From an uncultured archaeon (GTDB lineage Archaea > Iainarchaeota > Iainarchaeia > Iainarchaeales > VGJJ01), in contig CAYJRE010000001.1 of NCBI GenBank assembly GCA_964372665.1, positions 5,941 through 69,940 of the forward strand: 64,000 bases of DNA. The letters are read 5' to 3'. Positions 6,471 to 38,522 of the stretch are shown piece after piece. The stretch's first letter is position 1, and every line of letters starts with the position of its first letter. The notes beneath the pieces are model-generated. The model was not told the origin of the DNA, did not search any database, and saw nothing but the letters and a program-made list of their open reading frames with translations. A program made the position numbers and the translations under genes.

Positions 6471-8036
6471 TCATAATTCCTTGTTCACTTGTTCCAATAC
6501 CGAGTTGGGGTCGAAATAGTATTGTTGGATGATTTTTTCAACTGACACGGAATCCCTAATGTTGCGTTTGAGCATCCATTCCAGTATTTTTTCTCGAACA
6601 ACGAGTTCTTGGTTGATTCGATTTTTGGGTTTTCCAGAGGTGTCGGACAAGAGTTGGATGAGGTGGGAGGGGGTGTCTGTTCGCATAATCAAATCGGTTT
6701 GCGGGCTTCGTTCAAAGAGGTTGGATAGCAACACGTTTTGGTCGATGTGGGATACTTCGGCCACTTGCATGACCCGACGTTTCATTCCTTCCTTGTAATC
6801 TTGGACTTTCTGCAAAACGATGATCATATCCAATAGATGCACGATGCTTTGGGGCACGTTCATGGGTTCGGTGGTCAATCGCACGAGCATCTCTCGCGCT
6901 GTGTTCGAGTGGAGCGTTCCCAAGCATCCTTGGTGACCGGTATCCATGGCCACGAACAGGGTTTGGGCTTCTTCTCCGCGCACTTCTCCCAGGACAAGTC
7001 GGTCCGGTCGCATACGCAGCGCGTTTTTGAGCAAATCATTCATGCTTACGCCTGGGCTACTTCCTATCGCGGGTCGCGATTCCAATGATATCCAATTGTC
7101 TCGCTCCAAAAACTGGAGTTCGGTTGTATCCTCGATCGTGATGATTCGTTCGCGGTAACGTATGACGGTAGCAAGCGCGTTCAACAGGGTTGTTTTTCCG
7201 CAACCTGAACCGCCAGTAATGATGATGTTCATGGGGACCGCGTTCATTCCTTCGGTCATGAGCCATAGGAAGGCTGCCAATTCGGTGGAAAGCGTTCCAA
7301 TGGAGATGAGTTCGACTAGGGAAAGTGTCCTGGTTTGGAATTTTCGAATCGTGAGCGTGTGTCCGAAGGGAGCCACCGTTTCAAAGGTAGCGTTTAGTCG
7401 TGAACCGTCCGGGAGCCGGGCATCCAATAGTGGTTCGTGTTCGTGAAATTGTCTCCCCGCAAACTTGGCGGCTTTGGAAATGAGTCGGAGGAGGTTCATG
7501 TCATGTAAGGGGATGAACACATTGGTCTTGCACATCCCGTGTTTGTGGTGGAAAACAAAAACGTTTCGCAGGGTTCCGTTTACCATGATTTCTTCTAAGT
7601 CTTGGTCGCGCATGAGCGTACCTAAATACGAGTAACCCACCCCCTCATCCAACACTTTTTGGATGAAAGACTTTTTTCCTTTTCCGGGCGTGTTGAATTC
7701 TTCGAGCAAATTCGAAAACATTTGGCTCAATCGTTCCATGTCTTCTGGGCTGGGGAGTTTTTCGATGATTTCGGCGGCTTCGGCGTACGTGACAACGCGT
7801 GTTTTGTAGGCGGTGGAAAACCCCTTGGATAGTCCGCTGGGAAGTTTGGAGGTCCATTCTTCCGAGTGAAGGCTTCGGTTTAAACCACCGGCGAGTGCCT
7901 CCGCAAACGCAAGTTCATCCTCGTTCAAGTCGGGGGATTTTATTTCATATTGATTGTAGGGAAATCCCTCATAAAGCGTGCGGTGCTCATTTTTTTCTAA
8001 TACAACCCCTCGAACCGGGGTAATTCCTTCGCTCAT
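6471..8036 (-). CDS. type II/IV secretion family ATPase (FlaI/TadA/VirB11-like), intein-free paralog
   Basis: Walker A GGSGCGKTT, Asp box, His box TGHQGCLGTLHSNTA. 521 aa. Confidence 0.8.
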   Translation of the reverse strand: MSEGITPVRGVVLEKNEHRTLYEGFPYNQYEIKSPDLNEDELAFAEALAGGLNRSLHSEEWTSKLPSGLSKGFSTAYKTRVVTYAEAAEIIEKLPSPEDMERLSQMFSNLLEEFNTPGKGKKSFIQKVLDEGVGYSYLGTLMRDQDLEEIMVNGTLRNVFVFHHKHGMCKTNVFIPLHDMNLLRLISKAAKFAGRQFHEHEPLLDARLPDGSRLNATFETVAPFGHTLTIRKFQTRTLSLVELISIGTLSTELAAFLWLMTEGMNAVPMNIIITGGSGCGKTTLLNALATVIRYRERIITIEDTTELQFLERDNWISLESRPAIGSSPGVSMNDLLKNALRMRPDRLVLGEVRGEEAQTLFVAMDTGHQGCLGTLHSNTAREMLVRLTTEPMNVPQSIVHLLDMIIVLQKVQDYKEGMKRRVMQVAEVSHIDQNVLLSNLFERSPQTDLIMRTDTPSHLIQLLSDTSGKPKNRINQELVVREKILEWMLKRNIRDSVSVEKIIQQYYFDPNSVLEQVNKEL

Positions 8037-30658: not shown

Positions 30659-30816
30659 GATTCGAACTTTTTAGAAAAAAGTTCGATCAAAAAGGTCTGA
30701 TACCTCGCCCTTTAGGGCGACATTCGTCGCCCATTGTTTGGCGAGCGAGCACGCGAGCAAGTGTCGTTCATGCCCAATTGGATACCGTGGCCTTTAGGCC
30801 ACGGAGGAGGTCATTC
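30659..30816. repeat. ~157-bp hairpin-rich repeat, family C, copy 2
   Basis: Same sequence and orientation as 19069..19225. Confidence 0.75.
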
Positions 30817-30856
30817 TTTTTTTCTAAATTTTCTTTCCTTGCCATTTCTATTTTTT

Positions 30857-31279
30857 TTATCTTTTCCGTTTCCATTTTGGGCTTTTGATGTTTAGTATGC
30901 TTTCTTCGATGGGGACCATGATTCGCCAGCTTCGGTATAATACCATTCCTACGATGAAGGTGCAGACCCAGAAGAACACCATGGCGATTTTTGGGACGAG
31001 TCCGGAAACGATTTGCAAATCGGTTAACCGGTATTGGTTAGCGTGGAGCAATACGCCAAACGCGTAGTAGGCTTGGGTTTGGCAGTCTTGTATTCGTACG
31101 GTTCCGGAATTGGATGCATCGATGCAGGCGTGGACCGCTTTCACATTTTCCCATGAGTCGAGCATGCTGGTGAGGCTTTGCACGAGCATGAGTAATGCGG
31201 CGATCATCAGGAATGCGCCGAATAGCTTGGGCAAGTGAACGTCTCGAGAGCCCAGCCGAAATAACAACACGCGTCGCAT
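30857..31279 (-). CDS. small membrane protein (hypothetical)
   Basis: 140 aa with two or three predicted TM helices. Confidence 0.35.
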   Translation of the reverse strand: MRRVLLFRLGSRDVHLPKLFGAFLMIAALLMLVQSLTSMLDSWENVKAVHACIDASNSGTVRIQDCQTQAYYAFGVLLHANQYRLTDLQIVSGLVPKIAMVFFWVCTFIVGMVLYRSWRIMVPIEESILNIKSPKWKRKR

Positions 31280-31416
31280 ACCTTTTCTCCTTGCGTGGAT
31301 GCAAAAACTCTTTCTATTTAAATCTCGTGGTGATTTGGGCGGTAAATCGGGCCTTTTTTTGAGTCTTTTTCGTTTTTCCCAAAAGGGGGCTTTATAAGGG
31401 AAAAATCGGCAGTGAA

Positions 31417-34400
31417 GTGGGTTATTGCATGGCCAAAGAGGATAGTTCCAAGTCGACGAATCGGGGTCGTGTTTCCAGGTTGGCAGAGGAGATTCCGGCC
31501 CCTTCTCCGAATGAGGATTTGTCCGAGCTCATGCGAAAGATCAATGCGCTGCAGTCCGGCACCGGTTCTTCCTCCCCTAACTTGGATGTCGAAAAGTTGG
31601 CTCATTATGAAATGCGGAAGGAGCCCCTTCCTCCGGAAACCCCTGAGCTTGTTCCAATCGGAGGAAAGGAGGGATTGTCTCCCCCTCCTTCGAGTAAAAC
31701 CCCTCCCTTGGCCACTGAGGAAGCGTATTCGTATTCGCAAGTGGTCCAAGATCTCCAGAAGGTGGGAACTGAAGCCAATGTTTCGACGTTTGAGTCGCGT
31801 ATCGCGGACAAGCCCAAGAAGTTGATTGAAGAATATGGCCAAACTCGGATTTACAAAGTGCAAGGCGAGATTTTATTGTATTACTGGGTTCCCGTCGCCC
31901 GCCCCACGGTTTCCGAGCGTGTCGTCATCAACACCCTAAAGGAAGCTACGACTCGGCTCATCAGCATAACCCCCTATCGCATTCGGGATCCGGAGCAAAA
32001 GAGGAATGTGTACGCGCAACAGGTCTTGGAGATTTTGCGGGCTTCTCCCGAGTTGAAAGTGCCTTCGAGCAAGTTTGGTTTCTATGCGACTGCGGTTGTG
32101 ACCGAGATGGTGGGGTATGGATTGGTGGACTCGTTGATTAAGGACGATAATTTAGAAGAAGTCATGATCATTGGTCCCAATGTCCCGGTGTATGTTTTTC
32201 ACCGCAAATACGATATGATGACTACCAACGTCGAGTTTACGGCGGATAATGAAATTCAGGATTTGATTAATCGGATTGCCCGTGAGATTGGAAGGAGGGT
32301 GGATATTTCTTCTCCTATGTTGGATGCGCGTCTCCCCGATGGTTCGCGTGTGAATGCCACTATCCCCCCCGCTTCCGTTTCAGGCTCCACGCTCACGGTT
32401 CGAAAGTTTCGTGCCGAACCTTTTTCGGTGGTGGATTTGATTCTGAACAAGACGATGAGTGCGGAGGTTGCGGCCTTTTTGTGGTTGTGCGTGGATGGGT
32501 TGTTGGCGCAACCGGCCAACTTATTGATTTCGGGGGGCACTAGCTCTGGAAAAACCACGCTGTTGAACGTGTTGTGTTCCTTTATTCCGCCGATGGAGCG
32601 CGTGATTTCGATTGAAGATACTTCCGAGCTCAATTTGCCGTTGAAGCACTGGATTCGGTTGGAAGGAAGGCCGCCGGGTTTGGAAGGGAAGGGAGAAATT
32701 ACGCTCGATATTCTCACCAAAAACTCGTTGCGGATGCGGCCGGATCGAATCATTGTGGGGGAAGTCCGCCACGATGAGGCCTTTTCGTTGTTCACGGCGA
32801 TGAACACGGGACACGATGGTATGGCTGCGCCGGAAACACTCGTGCAATTCGATGACGGTTCGATCAAACCGATGGGTGCGTTTTGCGAGGACTATTTTTC
32901 AGCGCTCCCCATTATCTCGAAAGGGGATATGGAAGCAGTATACTTACCTGATGATGCGCCGAGCGTGGTGGCGGTAAATAAATTCAATTTGAAGCAGGAA
33001 AAGGCAAAAGTCAAAGCAATTTGGAGAAGAAAGTGCCATAAGTCGTATCGGGTGGTGTTATCTTCGGGTCGGGAGATTAAACTCTCGCACGACCATCCTG
33101 TTTTCCGTTTGAAGGATGGTTTTCTCCAGCAAGTGCAGGCCCGCGAGGTCCGATTAGGCGATTATTTGGGAGCGATCGGTGAATTCGTTATTTCGGGGCA
33201 AGATGCGGACGAACATGCTTCCTATTTCGTGGGGTTGGTGCTGGGAGGCGGCCACCTGCGGAAAGATGTGGTGAGTTTCACGAATAGGAATGAGCGCTTG
33301 CATCGATTGTTTTTGGATTCTGCGAATAAGGCCTTTGGTGTGGTCGGGAAGACCTACCCACGAAAGAACGAGATTTCCGTGTCAATGATTAATTCTGCCT
33401 CTTTTGCAAAGAGTATTCATGAGCATTTTGGTATCCCCTTTGGAAATAAAACCAAGATTTTTGATGTTCCACTAGAAATTGAAAAGTCATCACTCAACTG
33501 TGTTGGTTTCTTTCTCCGGGGAATGTTCGATACCGGTGGGAGCGTTTCTTCGATCCGGAAAAGCATTTGTTTGTCCACCGCAAACCCAAACGTGTTGAGG
33601 AAGGTTCCGTTATTGCTCAAGCTTTTCGGAGTTGAGTCTAGGATTAATGTGCAGCAAAGAGACGGCAGAGGGAATGCGGGCCCTTATTATCGTATTTTCA
33701 TTACGGGAGAGAAAAATTTGCAGGCTTATCATGAAAACATTGGATTTGGTCATTCTGAAAAGCGGGCCAAACTGGTCTCCATTTTAGGAGTAAAATCGAA
33801 TACCAACGTGGACTTGGTACCAGATGTTGGATTGGTCATCCAAAAGGCCCGGAAAGGGTTGGACTTTACCCAAAAAGAGTTGTCGATGAAAGCGGGTCTG
33901 GGCAAAAGCCGATCGATGTTGAATGCGTATGAAGCGGGGTCGCGAAGTCCTTCGCGTGAAACACTAAGGAAGGTGGTGCGGGTTTTGATTGACCGCTTTA
34001 ATGATAAAGCGAGGGAGTTTGGTAGGTACGATTATGGCTTGGCTGATGCCAAGGAATCGGAAGGTCTAAAATCGATTCGTTCGTTGATTACCCACCTTAA
34101 CGCCCTTTCGAATGGTCATATCATATGGGATAGAGTGAAAACGATTACCGTTAATGACGAGGATTCTCTTTATTACGATTTGACGCTTGATACTATCCAC
34201 ACCTTTACCGCGAATGGAGTCGTGATTTCAAATTGTATGGGCACCATTCATGCGAATTCAGCAGAGGAAACGTTGACACGTGTTACCAATCCTCCTATGA
34301 ACGTGCCCGGAGTCATGCTTTCGGGATTGAATTTTGTGATTATCGAAAACCTTTTTCATTCCGCGACCAGGGGTTCTTATAGACGAGTCACGGAGATTGC

Positions 34401-34659
34401 AGAAGTCACCGGTGTTTTAGAAGGAAAGGCGCATACTCAACCTATTTTTTCGTGGGACGCTGTGAAGGATGAATTGGTGCGAAACAATACCCCTATCAAG
34501 TATTTGGATCGGGTGTCCGCTCTTTCGGGGAGAAGTGTTTCGGAAATCGAGATGGAATTTAAAAGGAGAGAGCGATTTTTACAGGGGTTGGTGGACCGCA
34601 ATGTGCGCAGCCTTAAGACCGTTTCCATGTTAGCTGAAGAGTTTGTGGGAGGAGAATGA
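31417..34659 (+). CDS. type IV pilus assembly ATPase (FlaI/TadA family) containing an intein
   Basis: S/P-rich N-terminus, Walker [11 protein letters not shown], Asp box [11 protein letters not shown]. The His box NTGHDG...[11 protein letters not shown] is split by a ~471-aa insertion with LAGLIDADG-like motifs. Confidence 0.8.
32821..34233 (+). mobile_element. intein with LAGLIDADG homing-endonuclease domain inside the pilus ATPase. Position 1 is Met, not the usual nucleophile (Cys/Ser/Thr)
   Basis: Block A-like [23 protein letters not shown] blocks [12 protein letters not shown] and [15 protein letters not shown]. Block [22 protein letters not shown] followed by +1 Cys. The host junction aligns with the intein-free paralog, TGHQG/CLGT. 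Confidence 0.65.
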
Positions 34660-35864
34660 TGCCGGCAGAAGATTTCTCGAGTATTAAATCTCGGATTGAA
34701 GAGAAGAAGCCCACGGACCGGAATGTTTCCTCCGCGAATTCGATGCCGGAGAAGCCTGTTGATCTGTCGGATAAGCAGATTGATTTGATTGTAGAGCGGA
34801 TGAAGCATAAGTACAAGCAGGAGGGGCTAGAGTTTAATGAAGTGGAAGGGCAATTGGGCGAGCTCAAGGATATTATTTCGGGAACCGGTCAGAAAGGCGT
34901 GGAAGTCGGAGTCGATGCCTTGCGGGAGGGGAAAAATGCGTTCATTCGTATTCTGGGTCATTTGTATTTTTCGTTGCATGGTTTTTTTGAGTGGGTGAGC
35001 AAGCGAATCGAGACGTTTCCCCAGATGAAGACCTTGAACTATTATTTGTATTCGGCGAACATGTCGTATTCGTCCAAGCAGTGGGTCGCGATTGTTTCGG
35101 TGGTTTCTGTTCTCGTTTTTATTGCTGTTTTTTCGTTTGGTGAACTTGCTTTTCTTCTGCTTCGTTTCTTTGGTCAGCAACGGGGTCTGACATTGAGCCC
35201 TTTGGTGGTTACTCTTTCGTATGTTCTTCCGGTGATCGTCGCCTTGTTTTTTTCGGTAGCGGCGGTTGTGGTGGGGTTGTTGGTTCCAAAAATGAACGCC
35301 GAGAGGCGCGGGGACGAATGCTCGACCGAGTTGCCTTTTGCATTGCGGCACATGGCCACCGAGTTGCGCGCGGGAATTGGTTTGTATAAGACGATTCAGA
35401 CGATTGCCAAAGCGGATTACGGGGTGTTGTCGGAGGAGTTTACTCGTGCGATTTCAGAGATTGAAGAGGGCACCGACACGAAGGATGCGCTGCGCCACTT
35501 TGCGGCGCGCACGCAGTCTCGCCCCCTCGCAAACGCGTTGCGGCACATTATTCGGGCGTTGCGCACAGGAGGAAATTTGTCAGAGATCATGGGCAGCATC
35601 GCAAGCGATGTGAGTTTTGATTTGCGGATGAAAGTACGCGAATACTCGGAAAAGCTTAACTTTTTCGGTGTCATTTTCATTTTTATGGGAATTGTGGCTC
35701 CTGTTTTTGTGGGGGTGATGGGCGCCATCGTGAATGGGGGGTTGCCGCTGGGTTTTTCCATTCCATTGACTCCCCCCGTGATTATGATTTTTTACTTTCT
35801 GATTATGCCCACACTCTTGGGGGGGTTGGCGTATTATTTGTATGTCACGCAACCCCGGGTGTGA
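34656..35864 (+). CDS. pilus membrane platform protein, single T2SS-F domain (TadB/TadC/FlaJ-like) #1
   Basis: About eight predicted TM segments and a central cytoplasmic T2SSF-type domain ([20 protein letters not shown]...[12 protein letters not shown]). Confidence 0.65.
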
Positions 35865-35886
35865 AGACGATGAAAAGGTGAAAAAT

Positions 35887-36822
35887 ATGGTGGTGTACGA
35901 AAAGAAAACCCTGCTCGAGCAGTACGCATACTACATGCAGCAGGCCAACCTGGACGTTCCCGCATTGTTGTGGGTGACGGGTTCCTTCGTGGCTGCATTG
36001 GCCGTTGGCTTGCTGGTCTTTTTTGGGTTGGTATTGTTGAAGGTCAATGAGCCTTTGCTCGCTTTCCTTGGTTTTGCTATCGTGTTGGATATGATGATCG
36101 GGTATCCCTACATAAAGGGGAAATCGCGTATTGATGCGATCGAGGCAAGTTTGCCGGACGCGTTGAAACAGATGGCGGACACCCTGAAAACGGGTTCCAC
36201 GTACGAGTACGCGTTGCGCGAGGTCGCGTCATCGCAATACGGTCCACTTTCGGACGAAATGAAGAAGGTATTGCGAAAGTTGGAAGAGGGGGAAAATTTT
36301 GAGAACTCGTTAGCATCATTATCCAAGTCGGTTGAATCCAAATTGATTCGGAGAGTGGTTACTATTGTCATTGACACGGTTCGCGCCGGCGCCGCATTAG
36401 CGGACATTTTGGATGACATATCTCAAGATGTTCGGGAGATGAATCGTATTGCCGCGGAACGGAGGACCAAGACTATTTTGCAGGTGATTTTCATGGTGGC
36501 AGCCGGTGTTTTCGTGGCGCCCTTCATTTTTGGCTTGGTCTCAGTCGTCGTTGAGTTTTTGATTAACACCTCTACAAAGACGGGGGCGATTTCGGGGGCA
36601 AGTGCTCAAGCCATTCAGAATGCGCGGGATTTGATTATTTTTTCGGTGAAGGGTTATTTGTTTATTCTAGCCGTGGCCACCGGCGTGATTATGGGTGCCA
36701 TGCGCGACGGTAAGCTATCCAAAAGCCTTTTATATATCCCTTTGCTGCTATTGCTCGCTTATGCGGTGTTCTTCATTTCGCAAGTGTTGGTAGGATCGCT
36801 TGTGGGGTCTGGTAGCCTATGA
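35887..36822 (+). CDS. pilus membrane platform protein, single T2SS-F domain #2
   Basis: Second T2SSF-like domain (ALKQMADTLKTGSTYEYALREVAS...) plus TM segments. Start at the internal Met preceded by GGTGA. Confidence 0.65.
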   Translation: MVVYEKKTLLEQYAYYMQQANLDVPALLWVTGSFVAALAVGLLVFFGLVLLKVNEPLLAFLGFAIVLDMMIGYPYIKGKSRIDAIEASLPDALKQMADTLKTGSTYEYALREVASSQYGPLSDEMKKVLRKLEEGENFENSLASLSKSVESKLIRRVVTIVIDTVRAGAALADILDDISQDVREMNRIAAERRTKTILQVIFMVAAGVFVAPFIFGLVSVVVEFLINTSTKTGAISGASAQAIQNARDLIIFSVKGYLFILAVATGVIMGAMRDGKLSKSLLYIPLLLLLAYAVFFISQVLVGSLVGSGSL

Positions 36823-36986
36823 TGGTAGAAGATAATCACGGCCAAGGTTCCATCGACTTGTTGTTGGTGGTTGGCATCGTGATTGTGCTTGCCACGGTTG
36901 CGGGCTTGATTCTCAAGGGGTTGACTAACACGCTGCAAGGGAATGCGGCGAATTTGACGAACACGCTCATAAATAAAACGAACTAA
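36819..36986 (+). CDS. Flp/DUF361-type type IV pilin (class III signal peptide), 55 aa
   Basis: MMVEDNHGQGSIDLLLVVGIVIVLATVAGLIL. ATGA overlap with the preceding gene. Below the track's length cutoff. Confidence 0.6.
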   Translation: MMVEDNHGQGSIDLLLVVGIVIVLATVAGLILKGLTNTLQGNAANLTNTLINKTN

Positions 36987-37006
36987 CTGTTCGAAGGAGG
37001 GAACGT

Positions 37007-37177
37007 ATGGATAACCGAGGACAAGGAGCCCTGGAGTATTTGTTGTTGATTGGTGGTGCAGTGCTCATTGCCACGATCGTGTTGTTGATCATCATTGGCT
37101 CGTCTCAGACAACCAACGGAATCATCAACCAAAACCTCAACACCTATGTGCACAAGCTCGGCAACAATGTCCCATAA
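37007..37177 (+). CDS. Flp/DUF361-type type IV pilin, 56 aa
   Basis: MDNRGQGALEYLLLIGGAVLIATIVLLIII, a G-x-x-x-E-Y Flp-like motif. GGAGG Shine-Dalgarno-like sequence 6 nt upstream. Confidence 0.65.
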   Translation: MDNRGQGALEYLLLIGGAVLIATIVLLIIIGSSQTTNGIINQNLNTYVHKLGNNVP

Positions 37178-37206
37178 CGGAATCTCTACATTTGATTGGG
37201 ATTATT

Positions 37207-37380
37207 ATGGAGACGCGGGCCCAGGTAGGTTTGGAGTACTTGTTGACAGTGGCGTTTGGAGTGATTCTTGCCACTGTCGCGGCATTGTTAGCCTTGCAAG
37301 TCGTGGGCATTGCGCAGGTTGCGGAGAAAAACATTGAGCAGTATCGCCAGGAAACGGTTTTGAGCTTTTTGGGAGACTAG
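37207..37380 (+). CDS. Flp/DUF361-type type IV pilin, 57 aa
   Basis: METRAQVGLEYLLTVAFGVILATVAALLAL. Internal ATG of track ORF 37192..37380. Confidence 0.6.
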   Translation: METRAQVGLEYLLTVAFGVILATVAALLALQVVGIAQVAEKNIEQYRQETVLSFLGD

Positions 37381-37388
37381 TCTATTCC

Positions 37389-38522
37389 ATGATGTTCCCC
37401 CTGGCCTCTTTCCTTTTTTCATTCGTTGGGCTCGTTTTAGCCACGTATACGGATTTCAGGGACCGCACGATTCCTAATTGGATTTCGGTTGGATTAGGAG
37501 TCATGGGGTTGGGGTTGGCCGCCTTTGAGTACGTACAAACCCAAAATCTATCCAATTTGGTTTTGGTGGTGGGGGTGACGCTCGTTACATATATTGTGGC
37601 GTATTTGTTTTGGCGGTTGGGCGCGTGGTCGGGAGGAGATGTTAAATTGTTCGCGGGTTTGGGAGCGTTGAATCCCGTGAATCCGTTTGTGTTGGGTTCG
37701 TTCTTTTCGGTTTCGTGGATTTGGGGCAATCAGGAATTGTTTCGTCCGAGCATGTTGCCTTTTTTCATGCTGAATTTGTTTATTCTTTCGGTAATCATGC
37801 TTTTGCCCTATACGGCTTTTCTTTCTGTTTCGGTATTGAGAAACAACGAAAGAAGGAACGAGTTCTTCTCAATAACCAAGAAAAGTGTAGTTGAATCGTT
37901 TGCCTACGGCCTCTTGGTTTTGCTTTTCACTCGATTGGTGGAGGGGGTGGGGCTTCCCATTTGGATGATTGTTTTGTTGATGGTCGTTTCCGCGTTTCTT
38001 CCGCGAATGGCACGGATTTTTTTGGTTCTTCTCACTGTCTTGCTTGGTTTTTTTTCCATTGTTTCATTTTCCTCGTTTCCTTTTTTGTTTGCTACCTTTC
38101 TCATTATTGGTCTTATTTTTTCCTGGTACAAGTTTGCGCAGCGTCACGTTTTAACGCGGATAAAAAAAATTTCGGATTTGCAGGAAGGAGACATTGTGGG
38201 AGAGATTTTTCGTGTCCGGGGGGATAAAATCGTGCGCGAGGAACCCGTTTCGTTCAAAAACATTATTAAGGCCGGGCTCCAGCGGGATGTACCGGGGTTG
38301 ATGTCCGTGTTCCATGCCCAAAATGATATCGTCGCGTCACCTCGTCAGGCGGCGGGGTTGTATTCCGAGCAAGTTGCGCGATTGCAGGGGGAAGTGAAAA
38401 AAGGGAGTTTGGAGGACAGGGTGGTGGTGAAGGCCTCCTCCCCCTTTGCGCCGGCCGTATTATTGGCCTATGGGGTATTGAATTTGGTGGGGGATATTCC
38501 TCTCGTGTGGTGGTTTGGGTGA
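37389..38522 (+). CDS. A24-family prepilin peptidase (PibD/FlaK/TadV-like) with long C-terminal extension
   Basis: First catalytic Asp in TYTDFRDRTIPN and second in the conserved GGGDVKLFAGLGA block. About six TM segments plus a ~140-aa soluble C-terminal region. Confidence 0.7.
   Translation: MMFPLASFLFSFVGLVLATYTDFRDRTIPNWISVGLGVMGLGLAAFEYVQTQNLSNLVLVVGVTLVTYIVAYLFWRLGAWSGGDVKLFAGLGALNPVNPFVLGSFFSVSWIWGNQELFRPSMLPFFMLNLFILSVIMLLPYTAFLSVSVLRNNERRNEFFSITKKSVVESFAYGLLVLLFTRLVEGVGLPIWMIVLLMVVSAFLPRMARIFLVLLTVLLGFFSIVSFSSFPFLFATFLIIGLIFSWYKFAQRHVLTRIKKISDLQEGDIVGEIFRVRGDKIVREEPVSFKNIIKAGLQRDVPGLMSVFHAQNDIVASPRQAAGLYSEQVARLQGEVKKGSLEDRVVVKASSPFAPAVLLAYGVLNLVGDIPLVWWFG

Follow-up and report, generated by a model that had tools for sequence, protein, structure and literature searches.

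The locus examined here raises the question of whether an intein whose first residue is methionine, inserted in the catalytic His box of an archaeal pilus ATPase, belongs to a known splicing class and still splices. It lies in a window of 64,000 nucleotides from an uncultured archaeon of the Iainarchaeales (NCBI GenBank assembly GCA_964372665.1, contig CAYJRE010000001.1, positions 5,941 to 69,940 of the forward strand), and all coordinates below refer to that window. We read the insert as a KlbA-type (class 2) intein with Met at position 1 (Met1), located in the His box of a type IV pilus-type ATPase and probably splicing by direct attack of the Cys that follows it (Cys+1), and place the probability of this reading as a whole at about 0.72. 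Met1 is a genuine and recurrent yet modest variation. The missing N-terminal nucleophile, combined with the penultimate Ser, is the signature of the intein family found at exactly this site and not an anomaly.

Junctions and class of the insert

The host gene is an open reading frame of 1080 amino acids at 31417..34659 (+), with a probable start at the ATG at 31429; the gene call on a separate assembly also starts at 31429 and gives a product of 1076 amino acids. Pfam assigns the frame to T2SSE (E 8e-38), in a match interrupted by Intein_splicing, LAGLIDADG_3 and HTH_3. The insert itself occupies 32821..34233 (+), is in frame, and comprises 1413 nucleotides (471 codons) between NTGHDG and CMGTIHANS of the T2SSE/FlaI-like ATPase. 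Codon 469 is ATG (Met, 32821..32823) and stands right after the GAT GGT (Asp-Gly) of AMNTGHDG that ends at 32820. At the 3' end, the insert closes with TCA AAT (Ser-Asn, 34228..34233), after which the host resumes with TGT ATG GGC ACC ATT CAT (CMGTIHANS). The intein-free paralog at 6471..8036 (-) reads AMDTGHQGCLGTLHSNT at the same site, and the intein-free orthologs P0018 and P0017 read GHxG-C there, without an extra residue. Because the paralog and both orthologs align across the site, each junction can be placed to a single residue. An earlier, sequence-only reading of this DNA had proposed the same insert coordinates, the split His box and the boundaries relative to the paralog, all of which are correct. 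Its Met1 encoded by ATG and its Cys+1 after VVISN are likewise read directly in the DNA. The insertion point, in the His box from NTGHxG to the +1 Cys, is that of class 2 inteins. The host gene and the splicing domain divide as follows.

31417..32820 (+): N-extein of the T2SSE/FlaI-like (KlbA-family) ATPase (Pfam T2SSE; likely start 31429), 75-83% identical to P0016 and P0018
32533..32556 (+): Walker A motif GGTSSGKT, in the N-extein
32797..32820 (+): AMNTGHDG, end of the N-extein
32821..34233 (+): whole intein, Met1 to Asn471, 471 amino acids, KlbA-type class 2 (junctions, PDB homology, AlphaFold2 model and Foldseek)
32821..32862 (+): block A, with Met1 (ATG, 32821..32823) homologous to Ala1 of the Methanococcus jannaschii KlbA intein (aligned to 2jmz by HMMER without gaps)
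33067..33108 (+): block B, with Ser B:7 and His B:10 and no Trp B:12
34168..34233 (+): blocks F and G (NGVVISN), with Asp F:4, His F:13, Ile G:5, Ser G:6 and Asn G:7
34234..34659 (+): C-extein, with Cys+1 (TGT, 34234..34236) of CMGTIHANS, the second half of the His box and the C-terminal domain; 68-69% identical to P0016 and P0018

Base composition was considered as a sign of recent arrival and set aside, the G+C content of the intein region (0.42-0.51 across 32850..34350) lying too little below that of the exteins (~0.49-0.53).

Searching PDB with phmmer, using the insert and ten flanking residues on each side as the query, gave MJ0781, the KlbA intein precursor of Methanococcus jannaschii (hereafter Mja KlbA; 2jmz), as the top match (E 3e-16). 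Inspection of the alignment reveals an identical N-extein sequence, MNTGHDG, and an ungapped placement of KlbA Ala1 on Met1 of the window. An AlphaFold2 model of the insert (mean predicted local distance difference test score 83.8) matched TliVMA (E 1e-27), PI-PfuI (E 4e-24) and the KlbA intein in Foldseek, and the splicing domain of the model superposes on 2jmz with a root mean square deviation of 2.2 Å over 133 columns. Residue 1 stands at a constant distance from the conserved D/N/E-G of block A in all tabulated relatives bar one, P0007, which has D-T there.

Published accounts describe all class 2 inteins as KlbA orthologs with Ala1, Ser G:6 and direct Cys+1 attack (PMC4031507, PMC7765530). 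A 2020 review calls them 'Alanine-inteins' (PMC7765530); a 2023 review says just that the position 1 nucleophile is lacking. The insert carries Ser G:6, Asn G:7 and Cys+1 (VVISN/C), as do 26 of the 27 tabulated inteins at this site that do not begin with Cys. Block B contributes His B:10 along with Ser at B:7, where class 2 has Thr, Ser or Asn, and block F contributes Asp F:4 (LYYDLT); B:7, B:10 and F:4 assist the junction reactions (PMC2807308). Homology of the splicing domain to Mja KlbA is evident from phmmer, from Foldseek and from a tree in which the insert falls with the Ala1 KlbA-site inteins. Position 1 holds none of the Cys, Ser or Thr of class 1, in keeping with class 2; of the features that define this class, Ala1 alone is lacking. 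The sequence-only reading had treated the penultimate Ser, in place of His, as an oddity; the Ser is there, but it is the norm of the class 2 family. Calling either outcome unusual for an essential pilus motor was likewise an overstatement, in that a non-nucleophilic residue 1 with a penultimate Ser is the published norm at this site and only the Met in place of Ala is unusual.

Comparison with known systems places the insert more closely. Mja KlbA (MJ0781; 2jmz/2jnq) and the Pyrococcus KlbA orthologs share with the window a T2SSE/KlbA host and a site after NTGHDG and before Cys, and Mja KlbA also shares a homologous splicing domain, the absence of an N-terminal nucleophile, Ser G:6, Asn G:7, Cys+1, His B:10 and Asp F:4. 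It differs in having Ala1 and Thr B:7, where the window has Met1 and Ser B:7. Mja KlbA is moreover a mini-intein, whereas that of the window is large and includes both a degenerate LAGLIDADG endonuclease and a helix-turn-helix (HTH) domain. The KlbA prototype hosts are Methanococcales and Thermococcales, whereas the window host is a DPANN archaeon, probably of a Micrarchaeota-like kind. To our knowledge, class 2 has a single prototype characterised both biochemically and structurally. Class 3 inteins, such as the DnaB intein of mycobacteriophage Bethlehem, likewise have no nucleophile at the N-terminus, the prototype having Pro at residue 1 and the others further non-nucleophilic residues (PMC2807308). 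They are defined by the triplet Trp B:12, Cys F:4 and Thr G:5 (WCT), usually have Ser/Thr+1, and lie mainly in helicase P-loops (PMC2807308), unlike the window intein with its Cys+1 in an ATPase His box. Membership of class 3 was rejected, the triplet being absent and the corresponding residues being Val B:12, Asp F:4 and Ile G:5.

Met1 and the other first residues at this site

An identical 1076-residue protein is encoded in the Logan assembly of run ERR4904390, where the contig equals the window over all 6873 shared bases (window 30787..37659); this assembly possibly comes from the same reads, and excludes assembly error better than systematic read error. Relatives with Met1 were also recovered by protein search, in Micrarchaeota (P0001/P0004, beginning MACPDS), in Diapherotrites (P0009-P0011, MVVGK) and in P0023 (MASYDS). 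DNA scans for T-A-x-N-T-G-H-D-G-M were run on one genome per GTDB species and separately on metagenome contigs. The former identified five archaeal genomes, namely L001 (Diapherotrites CG10), L002 (Micrarchaeota), L003 and L007 (both 'Iainarchaeum') and L006 (an uncultured archaeon); the latter identified an 844-kb contig, L008, which is the source of P0023, along with L009, a repeat of the L001 sequence. The site holds Met1 in at least six other distinct inteins of DPANN archaea, each beginning with ATG and ending SN/C (L001, L002, L003, L006, L007 and L008). Two bacterial matches from the DNA scans were discarded, L004 being an unrelated protein with no intein and L005 a bacterial ATPase that has no intein and reads NTGHDGMLSTGHANS.

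The sequence-only reading had allowed for a sequence error at the N-terminal junction, or for a true junction one residue away; the intein would then start at Ala2. Ala2 does stand directly after Met1, and an Ala start is what class 2 would lead one to expect. As for an error, a Thr codon (ACG) lies one base from ATG, but it is the only one of the relevant codons to do so, any Cys, Ser or Ala codon being at least two base changes away. The identical DNA in the separate assembly and the ATG at the same position in six other archaeal genomes make a sequencing error unlikely. The shifted junction was rejected because residue 2 is not conserved, other Met1 inteins having Val or Thr there (MVVGK, MTRGD), and because the D-G of block A lies as far from residue 1 as it does in Ala1 inteins. 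A start at Ala2 would also leave an extra Met (NTGHDGMCMGT) that is seen in no intein-free homolog. Error and shifted junction are, even taken together, very improbable.

A comparison with orthologous inteins, which the sequence-only reading had suggested as a check, now covers 30 non-identical KlbA-site inteins and finds Met1 to be recurrent. The following numbers are counts and not frequencies, two of the searches having been aimed at the window or at Met.

Ala at residue 1: 17 inteins, ending SN/C except P0027 (HN/C)
Met at residue 1: 7 inteins, ending SN/C
Val at residue 1: 2 inteins, ending SN/C
Arg at residue 1: 1 intein, ending SN/C
Cys at residue 1: 3 inteins, ending GN/S

An unbiased profile search, over clusters at 50% identity, gave 17 matches at the site, of which 12 have Ala, 2 have Val and 1 has Met at residue 1, and 2 complete ones have Cys (plus the partial P0127). 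A second, word-indexed homolog search with alignment of the N-domain returned two short proteins only.

To relate these residues to descent, the concatenated splicing domains were placed in a neighbor-joining tree with Kimura-corrected distances and 100 resamplings; its deep nodes are weak, and only well-supported clades are used here. The Cys1 inteins split from all others (bootstrap 100). Met1 occurs in two places. Clade I unites the window, P0023, P0001, L003 and L006 (bootstrap 100), with the window branching earliest, while clade II consists of P0009 and L007, nested with the Ala1 intein P0007 (bootstrap 90) among other Ala1 inteins. The Arg1 intein P0008 is sister to the Ala1 intein P0006 (bootstrap 100), and a Val1 clade is also present. 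Met is encoded by ATG, Arg by AGA, and the Ala of neighbouring Ala1 inteins by GCG or GCA, so that each switch at residue 1 took at least two base changes. Val (GTG; Val1 is found in P0031 and P0055) or Thr are possible intermediates. The searchable literature, within the collection consulted, yielded no description of a Met1 intein or of a non-Ala class 2 intein. The Met1 class 2 intein is thus a new variation whose sequences are already public, annotated just as ATPases.

Several individual inteins extend this picture. The Arg1 intein (P0008; L013, Diapherotrites, GCA_016186855.1) begins RLSNDALIQL with the codon AGA, ends SN/C and is seen in one contig only. The Val1 inteins P0031 and P0055 begin VEMATEQ and VELATEP, respectively, and end SN/C. 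P0027, an Ala1 intein at the KlbA site, ends His-Asn/Cys (MIVHNC), as opposed to the Ser-Asn that has been called universal in class 2. A second intein is present elsewhere in the ATPases P0031, P0072 and P0017, inside IED|TAELNLP, where its last two residues are HN and the next residue is Thr+1; it starts with Ser in P0031 and P0072, and P0017 is without its N-terminal part. P0031 therefore combines, in a single protein, a class 1 intein with a class-2-type intein that has Val1. P0025 has a class 2 Ala1 mini-intein in a DTGHQG-type ATPase, which is the subtype of the intein-free paralog at 6471..8036 (-) in the window; the family of KlbA-site inteins thus crosses the ATPase paralog groups.

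Class 1 inteins occupy the same site in P0016, P0072 and P0087. They differ from the window intein in having Cys1, an ending in GN and Ser+1, they form the separate clade noted above, and the standard four-step pathway is open to them. P0016 (L011 4001..6403, GCA_964363635.1) holds a class 1 mini-intein of 182 amino acids, from Cys1 to Gly-Asn/Ser+1, and is the syntenic ortholog of the window ATPase gene, with 75% extein identity and the same operon order. The close ortholog P0018 has no intein. Given that P0018, P0016 and the window differ in this way, the site turns over among empty, class 1 and class 2 states in one host lineage.

Probable splicing and the possible role of Met1

Whether the window intein still splices was approached through selection and through the state of the exteins. 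The nearest relative of the window intein is ~51-52% identical, and the selection test therefore rests on the Met1 pair L003 and L006 and not on the window. Synonymous sites in that pair are saturated, which leaves dN/dS not computable in most partitions, and the comparison is given as proportions of nonsynonymous (pN) and synonymous (pS) differences. Against a pS of 0.75-0.82, pN reaches 0.24-0.25 in the two exteins, 0.15 in the region of the endonuclease and HTH, and only 0.11 in each of the splicing domains. Purifying selection therefore acts on the splicing domains and on the downstream extein, a pattern that makes sense only if the precursor matures. The window exteins show no decay: relative to the nearest orthologs the N-extein is 75-83% and the C-extein 68-69% identical, and the window differs at 10 of 205 columns that are invariant in eight other lineages (the other lineages range from 0 to 21), with all ten changes conservative (V/I/L/M, A/T, D/E, S/T). 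By relative-rate tests, the window branch has gathered no more than a slight surplus of changes. The ATPase also heads a complete pilus operon. From these comparisons of sequence, the intein probably splices, and its inactivation is unlikely.

The reaction proposed is the one known for KlbA. The thiol of Cys+1 would attack the Gly468-Met469 (Gly-1/Met1) amide directly and give the block G branched thioester. Asn939 (intein Asn471) would then cyclise to release the intein, and an S-to-N acyl shift would join the exteins, restoring the His box as in the intein-free orthologs. An N-S acyl shift would be as impossible for Met1 as it is for Ala1, and a side chain that plays no chemical part would explain why Ala, Met, Val and Arg are all tolerated at residue 1. 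A class-2-like direct attack by Cys+1 had been one of the options named in the sequence-only reading, and it is the one favoured here, the insert being a KlbA ortholog in the identical position that has Ser G:6, Asn and Cys+1 and lacks the WCT triplet.

Besides the possibly shared reads of the two assemblies, three points weigh against this reading. The splicing chemistry is proposed from homology. The published steric explanation of class 2 is built on an Ala1 intein, and Met beside the scissile bond is bulky. Lastly, unique substitutions in the window extein are slightly more numerous than in the two closest orthologs (for example 38 versus 27), with p ranging from 0.008 to 0.89 depending on the outgroup. 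For Mja KlbA, a 'slightly widened active site' has been proposed (PMC2807308, PMC4031507), and how an unactivated amide opens to direct attack is still called unresolved (PMC4031507). Ala1-to-Cys and Ala1-to-Ser forms of KlbA still splice according to a secondary report that cites Southworth 2000; their splicing is reduced (PMC2807308).

One alternative, which the sequence-only reading had also considered, is that the intein is splicing-dead, with Met1 disabling it, the ATPase copy left as an inactive precursor or young pseudogene, and another ATPase, such as the paralog at 6471..8036, covering the function. Non-conservative changes at residue 1 do block class 1 inteins (PMC3196547), a second T2SSE ATPase is present in the same window, the endonuclease is already degenerate, and the window extein has the slight excess of unique substitutions noted above. 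In the KlbA-site family, however, residue 1 is never the nucleophile, and Met1 has been kept in at least seven inteins of two clades, all with intact 1000-codon open reading frames. The low pN relative to pS in the splicing domains and C-extein of the Met1 pair, and the conservative nature of the window changes at invariant extein columns, speak for a maturing protein. The paralog is, moreover, just 41% identical and stands at another locus, whereas this gene heads a complete and syntenically conserved pilus operon. Loss of splicing is thus disfavoured by the selection seen in the Met1 pair and by the sound exteins, and we consider it unlikely. A splicing reaction by some other route, either through an internal intein nucleophile as in class 3 or through hydrolytic N-cleavage followed by something else, would draw on the fact that the known chemistry is limited to Ala1 members and on Cys22, a residue common to Met1 clade I and its Ala1 neighbour P0002 (FCEDYF / FCNEQF) and absent from Mja KlbA. 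In the window, this residue (GAFCEDYF) is encoded at 32884..32886. Met1 clade II, however, does not have it, nor do the Val1 and Arg1 inteins, the model places it in a helix after block A and outside the known active-site blocks, and the class 3 triplet is absent, F:4 being Asp. Such a route is quite unlikely.

Two further proposals concern Met1 in particular. Its codon might double as an internal start for a separate intein-endonuclease, which would explain conservation of the ATG; the sole point in favour is the conservation of the ATG throughout clade I, every member of which has an endonuclease domain. Met1 is also found, however, in a 183-residue mini-intein without an endonuclease (P0009/L001), the 15 bases upstream (GGACACGATGGT) show no evident ribosome-binding sequence on visual inspection, and the window endonuclease appears catalytically dead. 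An internal start is therefore most improbable. Met1 could instead have a role of its own and be no neutral substitute for Ala1: it might pack against and strain the Gly-Met scissile bond, or it might make maturation of the pilus ATPase conditional by serving as an oxidation-sensitive switch. Met1 arose at least two times, and this single-codon residue has been kept across a clade whose inteins have diverged to ~50% identity, as would be expected if it had such a role. If true, a role of this kind would set these inteins apart within class 2 as a sub-class with its own mechanism and would contradict the small-residue, steric view; we regard it as conceivable but doubtful. Direct Cys+1 attack with a chemically passive Met1 remains the preferred reading.

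Endonuclease, pilus operon and significance

The remainder of the intein is taken up by an endonuclease domain and an HTH domain.

33223..33258 (+): LAGLIDADG motif 1 (block C), with Gly at the catalytic Asp position (GGC, 33247..33249); relatives have GDGH, and PI-PfuI has GDG against GGG here
33508..33546 (+): LAGLIDADG motif 2 (block E), with Gly at the catalytic Asp/Glu position (GGT, 33535..33537); relatives have FD(S/T)DG or FDCEA and PI-PfuI has FDAEG; Pfam LAGLIDADG_3, E 3e-18
33838..33987 (+): Xre-type HTH_3 within the intein, downstream of the endonuclease core (Pfam HTH_3, E 1e-9, residues 808-857)

The two LAGLIDADG blocks noted in the sequence-only reading are present, but they are degenerate. 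An active endonuclease of this type has two motifs that each end in a catalytic Asp or Glu; here the motifs and the fold are retained while both acidic positions are Gly, each encoded by a codon (GGC, GGT) one base from an Asp codon. The homologs P0001 and P0023 retain Asp. Judged from these residues, the homing endonuclease is probably dead, having lost both metal-binding acidic residues, and the intein is probably an immobile resident that is kept as it still splices. A dead endonuclease would fit an intein late in the homing cycle, when the need to splice is all that retains it. PI-PfuI (1dq3) and TliVMA (7qss) are built alike, with a two-motif LAGLIDADG domain inserted into a HINT splicing domain (Foldseek E 1e-27 to 4e-24; phmmer E 6e-9), and the window intein differs from them in its two Gly substitutions and in the extra Xre-type HTH after the endonuclease core. 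The HTH is also found in the related inteins P0001, P0002 and P0005, and in P0005, from P. yayanosii, it is present with the LAGLIDADG domain absent. It might provide extra DNA recognition or act as a regulator.

Downstream of the intein-bearing gene, the ATPase stop codon overlaps the start of the next gene (ATGA), and the following features complete the locus.

34656..38522 (+): rest of the pilus-type operon (Pfam; genes called on L010, the identical contig, and at L011, the locus of the syntenic ortholog)
34656..35864 and 35842..36822 (+): two T2SSF membrane proteins (Pfam)
within 34656..38522 (+): small pilin-like genes with class III signal peptides, between the T2SSF genes and the peptidase
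37389..38522 (+): archaeal A24 prepilin peptidase (Pfam)

Together with the ATPase, these genes constitute a compact archaeal type IV pilus-like operon.

The finding is of moderate interest to intein specialists and of low interest otherwise. For annotation, it means that an insert in this ATPase that begins with Met and ends in Ser-Asn is to be expected and does not mark a broken gene. A Met-first intein that needs no N-terminal nucleophile could also interest protein engineers. Inteins with Met, Val or Arg at residue 1 are ready test cases for how a bulky or charged side chain beside the scissile bond affects rate, side reactions and regulation. The existence of natural Met1, Val1 and Arg1 relatives with otherwise the same catalytic residues makes the Ala1 definition of class 2 too narrow.

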